Of a DNA stretch of 17,056 nucleotides, positions 174 to 17,001 are shown piece by piece. The notes beneath the pieces were generated by a model that searched no databases, was not told the DNA's origin, and was given only the letters and a program-made list of their open reading frames with translations. A program made the translations under genes and the position numbers. This stretch comes from a virus, in UHGV virus genome UHGV-1593167, one strand, 5' to 3'. Each line of letters opens with the position of its first letter. Positions within the stretch are counted from its first letter, which is position 1.

Positions 174-722
174 TCAGCTAGCTGGAAACTTTTTATACAG
201 AGTTGAGAGCCCTACTCCATACGTTTTTGATACGCTTTGTCGTGATTCACCGGTTGCCATCCGCTCCCCCATTTCCCGCCATTGCTCATCCGTGAACTTA
301 GGCCTGCGACCACCAACTCGCCCTTTTGCCCTGGCTACGGCCAGCCCTGCTAAGGTACGTTCGCTATTAAGATCAGATTCATATTGTGCTGCGGAAAGGA
401 TGTTACGAAAGTTATAGCGGCCGCTGGCTGTTTTGAGATCCACGCCATCGGTAATACTGCGGAAGTTGATACCCTTTTCCTGTAACTGCTGGAACATCAA
501 CAGCGCATGCAGAACGTTGCGGCCTATCCTGTCCAGCTTCCAGACCACCAGTTCATCCCCCGGCTGCATAGTGGCGATCAGCCGTTTTAGAACCGGCCGA
601 TTCGATTTCCTCCCGCTGGCATGCTCTTCAAAAATTTTCTCACAACCCGCTGACTTGAGCGCCGTTAGTTGCAATTCAGTGTCCTGGTGGTTTGTTGATA
701 CTCGGGCATAACCGTAAATCAT
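174..722 (-). CDS. pin: Serine recombinase, DNA invertase of the Gin/Hin/Pin/Cin family
   Basis: 182 aa from the internal ATG at 722 (MIYGYARVSTNHQDTELQ...), with catalytic-serine motif YARVST, WKLDRIGR and a C-terminal HTH (GVGLSTLYKK). SD AGGAG lies 7 nt upstream of this ATG; the longer track ORF (to 881) has no plausible start. Sits next to an invertible fibre segment. Confidence 0.9.
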   Translation of the reverse strand: MIYGYARVSTNHQDTELQLTALKSAGCEKIFEEHASGRKSNRPVLKRLIATMQPGDELVVWKLDRIGRNVLHALLMFQQLQEKGINFRSITDGVDLKTASGRYNFRNILSAAQYESDLNSERTLAGLAVARAKGRVGGRRPKFTDEQWREMGERMATGESRQSVSKTYGVGLSTLYKKFPAS

Positions 723-726
723 GGGA

Positions 727-753
727 TTTCTCCTGTTATGAAAACAGGAGAAA
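727..753 (-). promoter_or_regulatory. Perfect 11-bp inverted repeat (TTTCTCCTGTT / AACAGGAGAAA, 5-nt spacer) in the invertase leader; the 3' arm contains the invertase SD
   Basis: 727-737 is the exact reverse complement of 743-753. On the pin mRNA this gives an 11-bp stem with a 5-nt loop ending 4 nt before the AUG and containing AGGAG. Confidence 0.5.
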
Positions 754-781
754 CGGCGAAGCATCACCAGATTTTTGATGG

Positions 782-10933: not shown

Positions 10934-11071
10934 CGTAAAACCCGCGCAAGGCGGGATTCACGTCCGGTGCCACCGACCAAAGTTACACCGGAATTTATAC
11001 CAAACCAAAAAACATCCAATGGGCGCTATCTCTGGCCCGGGGATTCTAACACTCAAAAAAGAGGATCTCAC

Positions 11072-13981
11072 ATGGAATTTTTCCATCTGATAAAAGCCAG
11101 TCAGAAGTCTGGCAAGAAAGATGCAGTGATTTGGTTCACTGCGAAAAGTGTAGCGCGCGCCAATCTCCAACTCGATGTGGCACTGGAAGAAGCCGGAATT
11201 GAAGAAACTGGCCGCGGTAAAGATTATGCCAAACCAATCCGCACCGATTTCCCGGTATATGACGACCTGCCGGAAGAAGGCGCAGTGGATTACACCTGGT
11301 GCGAACGCTACGAACTGCAGAACGATGACCGCACCTGGCTGCCAAAAGTCACAGCTGAAAACTCTGACGAGAAAACGGCTCAGACCGTTGATAGTCACAT
11401 AACTACTGAGTCAACGCTGCCAGAAACCGCTGGCATCACGCTGGACGAACACGACGACGACTCAACCCTCTACCCGGTAGTGCAGATGCCGTTTCGTAAG
11501 CAACTGCTTTCCCAGTTCACCGCCGACGAACTGCGCCACCACGTAACCCGCGAAGAGTACGAAGCTATCGGCGCGCTGGAGATGGACACTGATAACAGTT
11601 ACGTCCAGAACTTGCTGTTAGCTGCTGAGAACTGCCCGGAAGTGAAGGGTTACGACACCAAAGACCTGTGGCGCTACACCGATGCCATTCGCAAAGTGTT
11701 CAGCCAGGACAAGCGTCACGAACTCGCGCTGGTACTCCGTTTCACCAGAATGTGGGCGGCTACTGATTACATTGACCGTGGCATCCTGGCGCGTGAATGG
11801 GCTGCCGGTAATCACATCAGTAGTGTTCAGCGTACTGATTCCGGAACCAATGCCAACGGCGGTTACGTCACTGACCGTGGACCTGATACATACCATACCC
11901 TTGACACTCTCGATTTAGAGATTGCATGTGCCCTTCTGCCTATGGACTTCAACCACTTCGAGATCCCGGGCAGCATTCTTCGTCGCGCTAAAGAAATCGT
12001 GACCAAAAAAGAAGAACCGTGGAAATCATGGAGCAGCATTCTGCGCAATCAACCCGGCGTTCTTGGCGTTAACCGCACAGCTATTTTTAACCTGATACGT
12101 ATCGCGCCGGAAAATATTCATCTAACTCCTGTCGCTCACCTGGAGTTTGTTAACCGGACCATGACTGCTGCGTTTAATGCTGCTGTTGAGTTATTGCCAT
12201 TGCATGAAGCTGAGCCCGCAACACAGGAAATTCCCCAACCTGAAAGTAAGGAGTCTCCACGCAAACCCTTCTGCACTCACGAAGAGAACCTGCAACGCGT
12301 ACGTGAAGAAGAAGCACGCCGCCGCGCAGAGGAAGCGACAGCACAACCACATAAAGCCGAACAAGAACTGGTTAAAAATGTCGGCAACGGAATATTCGAT
12401 GTTACGGCTTTACTGCAGAACTCAGCAACTCATGGCACGAAACAGGCTACGGAAACCACCAGCAATGTGCAGGTTCAAGAAACTGTCAGTGATGAAAAAA
12501 ATGTTGGTAATGAAATGCAGTCAGGCGAAAGCAGTCTGGAAACTGGTGAAGAGTCACATCCCGGCCAGCAGGCCGATGTAAACCAAAATACGGAATCTGT
12601 CGCTCAAAATAGCGATTCTGTAAACCAGACTGAACCAGTTTTGGCACACGTCGAGCCAGAGGCGCAATCTGACGAACAAGCTGTTTTTTACCCCGATTAC
12701 TTCGAGCCTGGGCGCTATGAAGGTCTGCCGAACGAGGTTTACCACGCTGCCAACGGCATCAGTTCCACCCAGGTAAAAGATGCGCGCGTTTCGCTGATGT
12801 ACTTCAATGCGCGCCACGTTGAGAAAACCATCGTCAAAGAGCGCTCCTCAGTGCTGGACATGGGAAACCTGGTACATGCGCTGGCGTTGCAGCCAGAACA
12901 GCTCGATGAAGAATTTAGCGTTGAACCCGTAATTCCGGAAGGTGCATTTACCACCACGGCAACGATCCGCGCGTTTATTGATGAGTACAACGCCAGCCTG
13001 CCAGCGCAACTGAGCGCAGACGATATCAAAGCTTTGCTGGATGAATACAACGCCACCCTGCCAGCGCTGGTGCCGCTGGGCGCTAGCCTGGATGAAACGG
13101 CGCAGAACTATATGGCGCTGCCAGCTGAATTCCAACGTATCGATGCAGATCAGAAGAAGACAGCAACAGCAATGAAGGCGTGCATCAAAGAGTACAACGC
13201 CACCCTGCCAGCGCAGATTAAAACCAGCGGCAGCCGCGACGCACTACTCGAACAACTTGCGATTATCAATCCTGACCTGGTCGCGCAGGAAGCTCAGAAG
13301 CTGCAACCGCTGAAAGTCTCTGGCACGAAGGCCGATCTGATTCAGGCCGTGAAGGCAGTCAAACCAGATGCAGTGTTCGCCGACGAGCTGCTCGATGCTT
13401 GGCGCAACAACCCGGAAGGGAAAGTGCTGGTTACCCACCAGCAACTTGCCACCGCGCAGGCAATTCAGTCAGCACTGCTCTCGCACCCGACCGCAGGCAT
13501 GCTGCTAACCCACCCGAGCCGCGCCGTTGAGGTGAGCTACTTTGGCTTTGACGAGGAGACGGGACTGGAAGTTCGTGTGCGCCCTGACCTTGAGATCGAC
13601 CTAGACGGCGTGCGTATCGGTGCTGACCTGAAAACCATCAGCATGTGGAATGTTAAGCAGGAAAGCCTGCGCGCCAGGCTACACCGGGAAATTATTGAAC
13701 GTGATTATCACCTGAGCGCGGCTATGTACTGCGAAACCGCAGCGCTGGATCAGTTCTTCTGGATTTTCGTCAACAAAGACGAGAACTACCACTGGATCGC
13801 CATCATCGAGGCATCCGCTGAACTACTGGAGCTGGGTATGCTCGAGTACCGCAAAGCGATGCGCAATATCGCAACCGGATTCGACACAGGTGAATGGCCA
13901 GCGCCAATCACTGCTGACTACACCGACGAACTGAACGACTTCGACCTGCGCCGCCTTGAAGCGCTGCGTACTCATGCATAA
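11072..13981 (+). CDS. recE: Exodeoxyribonuclease VIII (RecE) homologue: RecE-type N-terminal region, acidic disordered linker, C-terminal PD-(D/E)XK nuclease domain
   Basis: 969 aa from ATG 11072 (SD GAGG 8 nt upstream; the track's start at 10967 has none). N-terminal and C-terminal blocks match recalled Rac RecE (e.g. NEVYHAANGISSTQVKD; RPD...GADLKT). Confidence 0.75.
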   Translation: MEFFHLIKASQKSGKKDAVIWFTAKSVARANLQLDVALEEAGIEETGRGKDYAKPIRTDFPVYDDLPEEGAVDYTWCERYELQNDDRTWLPKVTAENSDEKTAQTVDSHITTESTLPETAGITLDEHDDDSTLYPVVQMPFRKQLLSQFTADELRHHVTREEYEAIGALEMDTDNSYVQNLLLAAENCPEVKGYDTKDLWRYTDAIRKVFSQDKRHELALVLRFTRMWAATDYIDRGILAREWAAGNHISSVQRTDSGTNANGGYVTDRGPDTYHTLDTLDLEIACALLPMDFNHFEIPGSILRRAKEIVTKKEEPWKSWSSILRNQPGVLGVNRTAIFNLIRIAPENIHLTPVAHLEFVNRTMTAAFNAAVELLPLHEAEPATQEIPQPESKESPRKPFCTHEENLQRVREEEARRRAEEATAQPHKAEQELVKNVGNGIFDVTALLQNSATHGTKQATETTSNVQVQETVSDEKNVGNEMQSGESSLETGEESHPGQQADVNQNTESVAQNSDSVNQTEPVLAHVEPEAQSDEQAVFYPDYFEPGRYEGLPNEVYHAANGISSTQVKDARVSLMYFNARHVEKTIVKERSSVLDMGNLVHALALQPEQLDEEFSVEPVIPEGAFTTTATIRAFIDEYNASLPAQLSADDIKALLDEYNATLPALVPLGASLDETAQNYMALPAEFQRIDADQKKTATAMKACIKEYNATLPAQIKTSGSRDALLEQLAIINPDLVAQEAQKLQPLKVSGTKADLIQAVKAVKPDAVFADELLDAWRNNPEGKVLVTHQQLATAQAIQSALLSHPTAGMLLTHPSRAVEVSYFGFDEETGLEVRVRPDLEIDLDGVRIGADLKTISMWNVKQESLRARLHREIIERDYHLSAAMYCETAALDQFFWIFVNKDENYHWIAIIEASAELLELGMLEYRKAMRNIATGFDTGEWPAPITADYTDELNDFDLRRLEALRTHA

Positions 13982-13986
13982 GGGGA

Positions 13987-15105
13987 ATGATGATGGAAAA
14001 CACGAATATCGTAACCGCTGAACAGCAGACTCCAAACACGATCTCAGCCAGCAATGCCATTTTCAACGTGCAGGCTTTAACCCAGCTTCAGTCTGTCGCC
14101 GGGTTGATGGCACAGGCAGCCGTAACGGTGCCTGAGCACCTCCGCGGCAATCCGGCAGACTGCATGGCCATCATCATGCAGGCGATGCAGTGGGGTATGA
14201 ACCCTTACGCCGTGGCGCAAAAGACGCACCTGGTTAACGGTGTCCTGGGATACGAAGCGCAACTGGTTAATGCGGTGATCTCCAGCTCAAACGCCATCGT
14301 TGGCCGCTTTCACTATGAGTACGAGGGCGACTGGTCGAAATGTGCCAGCAGCCGCGAGATAACCGTTAAAAAGCCTGCGAAAGGTGGCGGGACGTACGAC
14401 AAGAAAGAAATGGTACGCGGTTGGGAAAGTGCTGATGAACAAGGACTGTCGGTACGGGTAGGTGCCGTTATTCGCGGTGAAAGTGATATCACCTGGGGAG
14501 AGCCTGTTTTCCTCTCCAGCGTAATCACACGTAATTCTCCACTTTGGGTATCAAACCCGAAACAGCAGATCGCTTATCTGGCACTCAAATACTGGGCGCG
14601 CCTGTATTGCCCTGCAGTTGTTCTTGGTGTGTACACCCCTGATGAGATTGAACAGCGCACAGAAAAAGAGATCAACCCAACGCCGCAACGCGTTAGCCTG
14701 GCTGATATCTCAGGTGACACCGTCACAACCACGCAAAGCGCACAGGAATCGTCGGTAAATGTCGACTCTCTTGCCGATGATTTCCGCGAACGCATCGAAT
14801 CTGCTCAGGACGTGGAAAGCGCCAAATCGCTGCGTGCCGACATTGAAACGGCGAAAGCTACGCTGGGATCCGCACTATTCACCGAGCTGAAAAACAAAGC
14901 CGTAAAGCGTTATTACCTAGTGGATGCACGCAACAAGGTTGAGGAGGCTATTAAATCCCTGCCCCAGCCCGACGAGCCGCATGCAGCCGAACGGTTCGCT
15001 GAAGCCGAGCGCATGCTTGCATCTTCAAAGCGTCACTTAGGCGATGAACTGCACGATCAATTCAGCATCACCCTGGCGGATATGAAACCGGAATACGTGG
15101 CCTGA
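13987..15105 (+). CDS. RecT/Redbeta-family single-strand annealing protein with a long C-terminal extension
   Basis: 372 aa; core resembles recalled Redbeta/RecT (QWGMNPY..., LWVSNPKQQIAYLALKYWARL...); starts 6 nt after recE stop with three consecutive ATG. Confidence 0.65.
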   Translation: MMMENTNIVTAEQQTPNTISASNAIFNVQALTQLQSVAGLMAQAAVTVPEHLRGNPADCMAIIMQAMQWGMNPYAVAQKTHLVNGVLGYEAQLVNAVISSSNAIVGRFHYEYEGDWSKCASSREITVKKPAKGGGTYDKKEMVRGWESADEQGLSVRVGAVIRGESDITWGEPVFLSSVITRNSPLWVSNPKQQIAYLALKYWARLYCPAVVLGVYTPDEIEQRTEKEINPTPQRVSLADISGDTVTTTQSAQESSVNVDSLADDFRERIESAQDVESAKSLRADIETAKATLGSALFTELKNKAVKRYYLVDARNKVEEAIKSLPQPDEPHAAERFAEAERMLASSKRHLGDELHDQFSITLADMKPEYVA

Positions 15106-15143
15106 CGAGACCGGGAGGGGTAACCCTCCCTCAAGGAGATTAT

Positions 15144-15386
15144 ATGCGACTGATCAATCGAGGAAGTAAGCAATCACCTTTAGCTCGCCAAGCATGCGAC
15201 ATCGCGCTGGCAGCTCACTTGCAAACATATGGCGACTATGGGCGAAGCAAGATGAAAGAGACTTATACGGTGAAGGTTGAAGGCGTGAAAGTCTGGGTGG
15301 AGGTGGTGAACCGAAAGGCGAGCTACGTGGCCACAGCGATGACCGGCATGCGCCGTCTCCGCTCCCTGCCCGGGCAGGTTGGTTGA
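15144..15386 (+). CDS. Hypothetical protein (80 aa) between the annealing-protein gene and the Xis/AlpA-like gene
   Basis: SD AGGAG 6 nt upstream of ATG; co-directional with the early operon; no family recognised. Confidence 0.4.
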   Translation: MRLINRGSKQSPLARQACDIALAAHLQTYGDYGRSKMKETYTVKVEGVKVWVEVVNRKASYVATAMTGMRRLRSLPGQVG

Positions 15387-15427
15387 AAAAGATTTTGAAT
15401 GGCCCGAACGGGCAACTGGAGAGAGCT

Positions 15428-15625
15428 ATGGATGATATTTTGGTAACGTCAGACCTGACCAGTCGCTACAAAATTTCACGCAAAACCCTTTGGTCATGGC
15501 AAAGTGCAGACACAATGCCTCGGGGCTTCGTATGCCCGTTCCCACCCCCTGACTGGCCCGGCAACCCTAACCGCTGGCGCTCTGAGTCAATCAAAGAGTG
15601 GGAGGATAAAAAGAAGATAAATTAA
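15428..15625 (+). CDS. AlpA/Xis-family HTH protein (putative excisionase or regulator)
   Basis: 65 aa from ATG 15428 (SD GGAG 6 nt upstream). Motif [22 protein letters not shown] followed by a Trp/Pro-rich tail ending IKEWE, typical of AlpA/Xis-like proteins. Adjacent to the integrase. Confidence 0.6.
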
Positions 15626-16815
15626 CTGAAGGGCTCTCCGATGATCTCTTCAAGATGGCTCTGCCAAACGCGGAGCCAGTGTTTCTGATCATCGATATAG
15701 TCATGAAGGTTGTAATGCGCCATAACCCCCACCATCTGATGCCCGAGCAGCTTTTCAATTACGTGCGGCGGGCAACCTAACTCAGAGAGATTTGTGGCTA
15801 TCGTCCGCCTCATATCATGAAGCGACCACTCTGCCATACCTGTTCCATTCCAAATAGAACGGGCGTAATTGGATGCCACAGGTGAATGAACGGGCGAATC
15901 TTTGATCCCGCCATCAATTTTACGTTGTGAAGTCACCAGGTGATTGGTGTTTATTTTCTTGAGGTGATTTCTGACCAGGTTAACGGCGGCGTCTGAGAGT
16001 CCCCTTCTAATATGTACCCGAGTTTTATAACTGCCCGCAGGCACGACCCACTCATTATCATCCAATCGAAACCATGATCTCTCACTAAGTCGAATCTCAG
16101 CCGTACGGCATCCGGTAAGCATAATAAATTTCACCAGGAAAACGGACTCTATCGACATATGGCTTTTCAACCACTGATAGATTTTGCGCAGATCGTCATC
16201 GTCCATCCTGCGAGTTCTCTTTTTAGGCTTTTGCCCGACATCAGATGGCAGTAATCCCTCGAGTGGGTTTGAGGCGATCACACTTCTGTTAACGCAGAAC
16301 CTAAACGCCCGTTTGCACAGCGAAAGCATGTAATGAGCCATCACCCTGCTTTCTATAGAATCGAAGACGTTGATCCAGTGCATTTTCGCTGTGTTATCGA
16401 CTTTGACATTCTTCATCGGTTCGGCGATATGTTTCTCAAACACCTGGCGATAGTAATCGACTTTAACTAGCCCGTTAGCGATACAGTGCCTTTCAATCCA
16501 GTAATTGAACGCTTCGGCAACGGACATCGCTTCCTGTCGGGTCTGCTTATCCAGCTTCACCTGCTCTCGCGGATCCAGTCCCTCAGTTAACCAGTTTCTG
16601 AATTGTTGGCGACGCTCTCTTGCCTGGGTGATACTCATTGCAGGATAATCACCAACATTGAGTTTTACCGCTTTACCGGCCCAGCGATACCGATAGAAAA
16701 ATGATATTTTTCCGGCCTGGCTGATTCTGGCGTTGAGCCCGTGCGAATCAGAAATAATCTCGATATCATCTCTTTTCTTGCCGAGCGCCTTCCTGAGCTT
16801 TGTGTCGGTGATCAT
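15622..16815 (-). CDS. int: Tyrosine integrase, P4/CP4-57-like family
   Basis: N-terminal [10 protein letters not shown]... resembles the P4-type LTDTxIKAAK motif; C-terminal catalytic region has LHDMRRT and MAHYNLHDY (R-H-R-Y pattern). Start uncertain (16815, 16830 or 16872); none has a clear SD. Confidence 0.85.
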
Positions 16816-16820
16816 TGAAT

Positions 16821-16861
16821 GGGTACACATTTTTGTTTTTGGGTACACAAAAGTGTACACA
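16821..16861. repeat. Three direct repeats of GTACACA (two as GGGTACACA) in the integrase leader; candidate arm-type binding sites or operators
   Basis: GGGTACACA at 16821-16829 and 16841-16849, GTGTACACA at 16853-16861; between the integrase start and attR. Confidence 0.4.
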
Positions 16862-17001
16862 AAGTTGCCCACTCAAAGCTACACGCAATGTAACACTAGT
16901 TCGCAGAGTGTTATGGTTTACATCCTTGAAAGCCTGCTGGATAAGGGTTTAGCGTAACAGAACGTTTTTACGCGGAATTGTTCGTAATATGCCAAATGAC
17001 A

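Follow-up and report, generated by a model that had tools for sequence, protein, structure and literature searches.

The stretch of DNA analysed here, which we call the window, comprises 17,056 nucleotides of a virus genome (UHGV-1593167) and harbors on its minus strand a gene for a serine DNA invertase with a Resolvase N-terminal domain (PF00239) and an HTH_7 domain (PF02796). Two 26-bp crossover sites, both marked by a perfect 15-nt inverted repeat (794-808 / 2658-2672), bound a segment of ~1.9 kb that carries alternative tail-fibre C-termini and assembly genes (fibre/tfa cassettes); with these domains, inverted crossover sites and tail-fibre cassettes, the locus has the makeup of a Din-family DNA invertase system. 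The hairpin that is the subject of this report lies in the leader, which separates the start codon from the invertase-proximal crossover site. The features are as follows.

174-722, minus strand: serine DNA invertase of the PinL/HK225 type, 182 aa, with its ATG at 722-720
723-726, minus strand: spacer UCCC from the stem to the AUG, variable in length and sequence in relatives
727-737, minus strand: hairpin 3' arm AACAGGAGAAA, which includes the Shine-Dalgarno (SD) AGGAG at 734->730
738-742, minus strand: hairpin loop UUCAU, which differs in relatives (UUCAC, UUUAC, UUUAU and a 6-nt UUCACU)
743-753, minus strand: hairpin 5' arm UUUCUCCUGUU, which holds the anti-SD CUCCU
755-768, minus strand: small hairpin GGUGA-UGCU-UCGCC (predicted -6.7 kcal/mol), abutting the big stem on its upstream side
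782-807: invertase-proximal 26-bp crossover site, reading TTCTCCCAAACC-AA-CCTTTTTTATAA on the minus strand
2659-2684: second 26-bp crossover site, within the tail-fibre gene

An earlier note on this DNA, made from the sequence alone, had named the invertase gene pin, an assignment that we correct. The Pin protein of e14 (PinE) is, we take it, of the MLIGYVRV type, and the E. coli loci annotated as pinE that we fetched have this N-terminus and a leader unlike that of the window. The gene at hand belongs instead with phi80 PinL, HK225 and mEp237, in which the module of invertase, leader and crossover site is 93.8-99.8% identical at the nucleotide level. The invertase region has matches in 1952 of 5426 complete genomes, and the module is common in E. 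coli genomes. In one of the related loci (L006), the same segment lies beside the invertase in the opposite orientation; as both orientations occur in nature, some invertase must be made, and the L006 arrangement is direct evidence of natural inversion by an active system. A tail operon (baseplate J, DUF2612, gp53-like fibre, tfa) lies directly upstream on the same strand as the invertase, and the scan of the window found no convincing terminator between the two, just marginal terminator-like sites. A co-directional external transcription unit thus reads into the invertase gene, one of the features by which IS10-type control is recognized.

Several other elements of the window were observed in passing. 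About 20 nt past the invertase stop, at ~112-153 on the minus strand, GGGCACA...UGUGCCC followed by UUUAAUUUAUU is likely the invertase terminator, which the terminator scan missed because of its long loop. On the plus strand, a promoter-like TTGATA-16-AATCAT (9/12) at 695-722 overlaps the first invertase codons in antisense orientation and is directed into the invertible segment; RNA made from it would run antisense to the hairpin, and the element may be a mere by-product of coding constraint. Further away, at 10967-16872, are a RecE-like protein (Exonuc_VIII + PDDEXK, 1004 aa), RecT and a tyrosine integrase directly beside a tail-tip/SLT gene. The window lacks the head genes and the remaining tail genes, an arrangement suggestive of a prophage that has been rearranged or truncated.

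On the invertase-sense strand, the RNA reads 5'-GCCG UUUCUCCUGUU UUCAU AACAGGAGAAA UCCC AUG. Direct reading of the window bears out the perfect 11-bp inverted repeat with a 5-nt loop that the earlier note had described: 727-737 (TTTCTCCTGTT on the plus strand) is the exact reverse complement of 743-753 (AACAGGAGAAA), with 738-742 as spacer. As the note also held, the stem ends 4 nt before the AUG, these 4 nt being UCCC (726->723). The SD is positioned 7 nt 5' of the AUG. In context, a 12th pair of the G.U type (G754/U726) is predicted to close the stem. The invertase is the only long ORF that starts beside the hairpin, and this is the only perfect hairpin of at least 11 bp with a 3-8 nt loop across the 17-kb window; dinucleotide shuffles predict 0.05 such hairpins per window, with 4% of 300 shuffles containing one.

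The predicted stability of this structure is high. Alone, the 27-nt hairpin is calculated at -14.1 kcal/mol, or -15.4 kcal/mol with the closing G.U pair, and together with the small upstream hairpin at -22.7 kcal/mol; the 111-nt leader folds at a predicted -28.8 kcal/mol vs. -14.7 +/- 2.9 kcal/mol in shuffles (z = -4.9), with none of 200 shuffles equal to it. The predicted cost of opening the invertase SD is 14.0 kcal/mol, with a mean probability of being unpaired of 0.003, vs. 1.7-11.6 kcal/mol and 0.20-0.59 for 18 other ORF starts in the window, several of which are possibly mis-assigned. When the upstream leader was shuffled, none of 100 versions matched the occlusion of the real SD. The folding-energy calculation that the earlier note had proposed therefore came out in its favor, with a leader stem that is predicted to be stable and the sole SD buried in it, and on these energies the leader belongs among SD-sequestering hairpins. 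The dependence on the 5' end of the RNA is sharp: predicted occlusion is kept (>=11 kcal/mol) as long as the RNA starts no more than 2 nt inside the 5' arm, whereas an RNA starting at least 6 nt inside this arm would need ~4 kcal/mol or less, leaving the SD free. By this modeling, an mRNA would have to begin no further downstream than roughly the second nucleotide of the 5' arm to form the hairpin.

RNA thermometers such as ROSE and fourU likewise hold the SD in a hairpin, one with mismatches that melts at 37-42 C. The stem studied here is perfect and predicted not to melt, with an in silico probability of an unpaired SD of <=0.001 through 50 C and at most ~0.04 at 80 C; as the SD is predicted to stay paired even at 80 C, we rejected the thermometer. 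A covariance-model search of Rfam gave a best E-value of 8.7, far below the gathering score. We also considered a terminator or attenuator that halts read-through before it reaches the invertase gene. The small hairpin (769->754) with the U-rich 5' arm was indeed flagged as terminator-like by the scan, but it has just 5-6 bp, and several variants that retain the big stem have lost it or carry a weaker form. Downstream of the 11-bp stem comes UCCCAUGAUUUAC, which has no U tract, and the scan left this stem unflagged, so that it was rejected as an intrinsic terminator. We consider a terminating role very improbable.

The small hairpin is present in most leaders of this invertase type (hereafter Pin-type) and absent or weakened in four of them (L282, L339, L054, L238). 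Its third pair is CG in 13 variants, UG in 4 and UA in 1, and its variable loop usually contains a -10-like hexamer (GATACT, GATATT or GATGCT), which in the window is GATGCT at 765->760. The same loop includes an ATG (761-763, minus strand) situated 14 codons upstream of the invertase start in a frame open to 881. This ATG is in frame and probably unused; it is not conserved in other leader variants, and we dropped the idea of an upstream ORF with translational coupling. The frame that ends at an ATGA overlap was discarded too, having no start codon, and inspection of the leader variants revealed no conserved upstream ORF ending in or near the stem.

The relatives that we compared had been found by protein or by N-terminal coding pattern, so that retrieval was blind to the hairpin. 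Of 43 distinct Pin-type haplotypes, 42 have the stem and one, L317, lacks it; in a scan anchored on the N-terminus, it was found in every Pin-type leader of viral contigs and in all but one of those from metagenomes. Among the 42 stem-bearing haplotypes, nucleotide diversity is 0.036-0.041 in the arms, almost wholly at the outermost pair, compared with 0.17 for the loop, 0.39 for the spacer of 4-5 nt that leads to the AUG, 0.42 for the leader further upstream and, at invertase codon positions 1/2/3, 0.18/0.15/0.47. The arms are thus ~10-fold more conserved than adjacent neutral sites. The predicted stem energy stays within -14.6 to -15.4 kcal/mol in 16 of 18 leader variants, and the two variants with a single mismatch are at -11.8 and -12.4 kcal/mol, one of them gaining a G-C closing pair. 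Short inverted repeats do occur by chance, and a palindrome of this kind could in principle have no function; given the 0.05 expected per window and the conservation of its arms, this explanation is effectively refuted.

What the conservation reflects is less straightforward. The earlier note had proposed a comparison of related leaders for covariation, and covariation is thin. By formal counting, 8 of the 12 pairs are invariant and the outermost pair (UA in 15 variants, CG in 2, UG in 1) is the only compensatory one, the 12th pair being GU (16) or GC (1); the covariation score was matched by 4 of 500 column shuffles and by some slid controls, and whole-structure covariation statistics were merely marginally above controls. 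The note had taken conservation without covariation as speaking against its own reading and for a protein-binding site, and this is largely the pattern that we see; taken by itself, it would fail to tell an RNA stem from a palindrome that binds a protein. The G.U variants in the stem and the small hairpin fit an RNA read on the invertase-sense strand, since G.U pairs work on that strand alone, which makes this variation of the RNA type. At the same time, the arms appear to be constrained in sequence beyond the needs of pairing: given that third codon positions reach a diversity of 0.47, one would expect the six pairs outside the SD to show more drift, whether compensatory or to G.U, than they do. 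We surmise that either loss of stability is strongly counter-selected or the sequence is read by something, and our search for a candidate reader of the arms found none.

The possibility of such a reader bears on another explanation, namely that a dimeric protein, either the invertase or a host factor, binds the 27-bp DNA palindrome as its operator and represses or blocks transcription of the invertase gene, in which case the palindrome would overlap the SD only incidentally. The very strong conservation of the arms with almost no covariation is what an operator would show, the palindrome sits between the putative promoter and the gene, and its outer TTCTCC resembles the outer hexamer of a crossover half-site. 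The module also moves among lambdoid, P2-like and other prophages, which would leave only the invertase or a host protein as the reader. The invertase, however, is a poor candidate: against a matrix of 41 crossover half-sites, the palindrome half scores -4.7 bits, a value equalled by 12% of random 12-mers, compared with 9.5-14.8 bits for real half-sites, in which the inner AAAcc/AAAgg is the invariant portion. The shared outer TTCTCC had suggested a crossover pseudo-site with autoregulation by the invertase, which this matrix led us to reject, and the palindrome, at 25/27 bp, differs in length from a 26-bp crossover site composed of two 12-bp half-sites and a 2-bp core. Tn3/gamma-delta resolvase, a serine recombinase that regulates its own gene at res, is the model for such an operator, the controlling site being placed between the recombination site and the gene start; in contrast to that arrangement, the Pin-type palindrome is unlike the binding half-sites of its own invertase. 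As for host factors, the window has CTGT-N7-ACAG, off by one from the spacing of a LexA box (CTGT-N8-ACAG), and inspection revealed no G-N13-C frame for a Fis site, so that both sites were rejected. The loop varies in sequence and, in two leaders (L282/L358), in length, with the 6-nt UUCACU, a change poorly tolerated by a dimer site of fixed spacing, and the G.U-type asymmetries also argue against an operator, as does the lack of a second copy of the palindrome in the window. In L282 and L358 only, the 1-nt longer loop creates CTGT-N8-ACAG with LexA-core spacing, and the small upstream hairpin is missing there. With the leaders described next, in which the SD is paired despite the lack of such palindrome geometry, we regard the operator as unlikely.

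Leaders in which the sequence has been replaced are the most informative in this respect. The exceptional L317 (contig JACCDZ010383531.1, 1-210 reverse strand of the locus) encodes a Pin-type invertase 84% identical to that of the window and has a normal crossover site, with a leader unrelated in sequence to the window's. This leader nonetheless pairs the SD together with the nucleotides that follow it, stopping 1 nt short of the AUG (ACAUCACU(U)CC-N15-GGAGUGAUGU, predicted -11.7 kcal/mol) in a bulged 10-bp stem with a 15-nt loop, and opening its SD would cost 10.7 kcal/mol vs. 4.8 +/- 1.7 kcal/mol in shuffles, none of 200 shuffles being as occluded. Mu/D108 gin, P1 cin, e14-type pin and the P2-like hin-like genes belong to the same gene class and have an adjoining crossover site, with unrelated leader sequences. 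Occlusion beyond that of shuffled-upstream controls was found in the Eeyore leader, GUCACCU-N17-AGGUGAC (0/100 controls as occluded), in P1 cin (2/100) and in P2-like/e14-type leaders (L180, 1/100; Cartapus, 3/100). The stems of L317, Eeyore, cin and the P2-like leaders have 12-17-nt loops or a bulge and therefore cannot be dimer operators of the Pin-type geometry. Our main argument that SD occlusion is a selected property is that in these replaced leaders the SD is occluded again. We dropped the idea that occlusion is universal in the family: in 14 of the 19 non-Pin leaders tested, it is indistinguishable from shuffles; by this comparison, it is absent from Mu-like gin, Fels-2 (both with GTG starts) and several others, and the apparent 6-7-bp stem of L056/L061 is not significant. 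GTG starts are found in L084, L089 and L091 (Mu-like gin) and in L087 (Fels-2), and may represent a different route to low translation. A profile search of genome contigs with an alignment of 13 invertase sequences gave, among the matches listed, resolvase-like proteins of <=52% identity from many phyla, too distant to be of use for the leader.

Where transcription starts determines whether the hairpin is part of the native mRNA. No sigma-70 site on the minus strand passed a standard scan, and all predicted promoters are weak (2-8 bits). With a simple matrix, a weak candidate promoter of 4.5-7.6 bits recurs in Pin-type leaders, with its -35 (TTTATA/TTCAAA/TTGTAA; in the window TTTATA, 788->783) in the outer crossover half-site, a spacer of 16-19 nt, and its -10 (GATGCT/GATATT/GACATT/GATACT) within the small hairpin's loop. 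In 8 of 11 variants, the predicted +1 is the first nucleotide of the 5' arm; if this candidate is right, the native mRNA would carry the big stem as its 5'-terminal hairpin. By comparison, the best predicted -10 of the Eeyore and P2-like/e14-type leaders overlaps the anti-SD, with the predicted +1 after it. An extended -10-like TGGCAT(C/G)AT was noted 20-35 nt upstream of the start in L086, L085, L177, L180 and L181 (P2-like/e14-type), L084 (D108 gin) and L087 (Fels-2); in the P2-like leaders it overlaps the anti-SD, so that the predicted start falls after it, and such a start would restrict SD pairing to read-through transcripts, as in IS10.

These predictions bear on two more explanations. 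In the first, the hairpin acts as an insulator that silences only transcripts entering from upstream: late read-through from the tail operon would carry the 5' arm and hence be untranslatable, whereas a native promoter in or after the 5' arm would yield a translatable mRNA. The tail operon directly upstream on the same strand, the lack of a convincing terminator before the invertase, the free SD of an RNA starting at least 6 nt inside the arm and the predicted starts of Eeyore and the P2-like/e14-type leaders are all in keeping with this. Against it, the candidate +1 of most Pin-type variants leaves the hairpin in the native mRNA, we found no -10-like element placed to start transcription inside the Pin-type 5' arm, and the predicted promoters are weak throughout. 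We consider an insulator rather unlikely for the Pin-type leader, though the most probable of the alternatives to occlusion of the native message. In the second, the stem-loop at the 5' terminus shields a weakly transcribed mRNA from 5'-end-dependent decay or affects its processing, and SD pairing is a side effect. A hairpin at the extreme 5' end is a known protective arrangement, the ompA 5' stem-loop being an example, and the predicted +1 does coincide with the base of the stem; but the start is merely predicted, and a role in stability explains neither the inclusion of the SD in the stem nor the SD pairing of unrelated leaders with long loops. We find this improbable, and more so than the operator.

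Our preferred reading, to which we assign a probability of roughly 60%, is that a cis-acting hairpin in the 5' UTR occludes a strong SD, such that the invertase would rarely be translated. The 3' arm holds a strong, ideally spaced SD and the 5' arm would act as a perfect anti-SD, with further complementary bases to either side. The SD would, at equilibrium, almost never be single-stranded, and the 30S subunit would have to compete with a stem of ~-15 kcal/mol, resulting in rare initiation; rare initiation would in turn mean a constitutively very low supply of invertase. As the formation of synapses is limited by how much recombinase is present, the adjoining tail-fibre segment would then be inverted at a low rate. 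The earlier note had proposed that the stem limits translation and keeps inversion infrequent; burial of the SD and its conservation speak for this, and from them we infer that the native mRNA includes the 5' arm, that less invertase is translated and that inversion frequency is thereby set. As to the size of the effect, expression reportedly falls about tenfold per 1.4 kcal/mol according to de Smit and van Duin, and the empirical slope of Salis is said to be about 0.45 per kcal/mol. With a gap of ~9 kcal/mol between real and shuffled leaders, the predicted reduction would lie anywhere from tens-fold to many orders of magnitude, a range rather than a single value.

Sequestration of the SD is a classical mechanism. 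In leader hairpins of this kind, such as the initiation hairpin of the MS2 coat gene studied by de Smit and van Duin, expression drops steeply with stem stability. The Pin-type leader resembles them in having its SD in a stable stem, with stability here being predicted, and differs in that 1) the stem lies above the range of stability usually studied, and 2) its arms are conserved beyond pairing needs. Fold-back inhibition in IS10 and IS50, in which translation of transposase is said to be blocked on read-through transcripts (as described by Davis, Simons and Kleckner in 1985 and by Schulz and Reznikoff in 1991), offers a closer analogy: as in these elements, a DNA-rearranging enzyme would be kept scarce by pairing of its ribosome binding site with an upstream complement in a gene entered by a co-directional external transcription unit. 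However, the 5' arm of IS10 lies upstream of the native start, whereas the predicted start of the Pin-type leader is at the base of the stem, so that the native mRNA would be occluded as well; the IS10 geometry is matched more closely by the P2-like/e14-type and Eeyore leaders than by the Pin-type leader.

The hairpin itself has been recorded before. The phi80 pinL leader (GenBank JX871397) carries a type-2 version of it, CTTCTCCTGTT-TTTAC-AACAGGAGAAG, directly upstream of pinL, and the record annotates both arms as a repeat_region, the inverted repeat 'IR3', without a function. Our full-text search of the literature found no account of invertase leader hairpins, the sequence papers of the 1980s being outside its reach. 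Nor did the literature searched contain the functional reading, the statistics on conservation or the convergence among leaders, a prior description from the 1980s being possible; with the mechanism classical and the repeat already marked in phi80, the gain is incremental.

We tentatively speculate, at odds that we judge well short of even, that hiding the SD is a convergent design rule of tail-fibre invertases, with the non-occluding leaders using GUG. On this reading, at least four unrelated leaders (Pin-type, L317, Eeyore, P1 cin and part of P2-like/e14) each evolved a stem, which, depending on the transcription start, would throttle all translation or blind the enzyme to tail-operon read-through. 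Were this rule true, translation initiation, not transcription, would chiefly set the rate of phase switching, and the near-absolute conservation of the stem would point to a factor that opens it on demand. The hairpin could also serve as a compact natural part that limits the leakiness of recombinases in synthetic circuits. Inversion by Gin, Cin, Pin and Hin is a textbook model in which weak promoters are usually held to set the level of recombinase. A strong SD covered by a conserved stem of ~-15 kcal/mol would be a simple translational determinant of the frequency of host-range switching, one that would concern many E. coli prophages.
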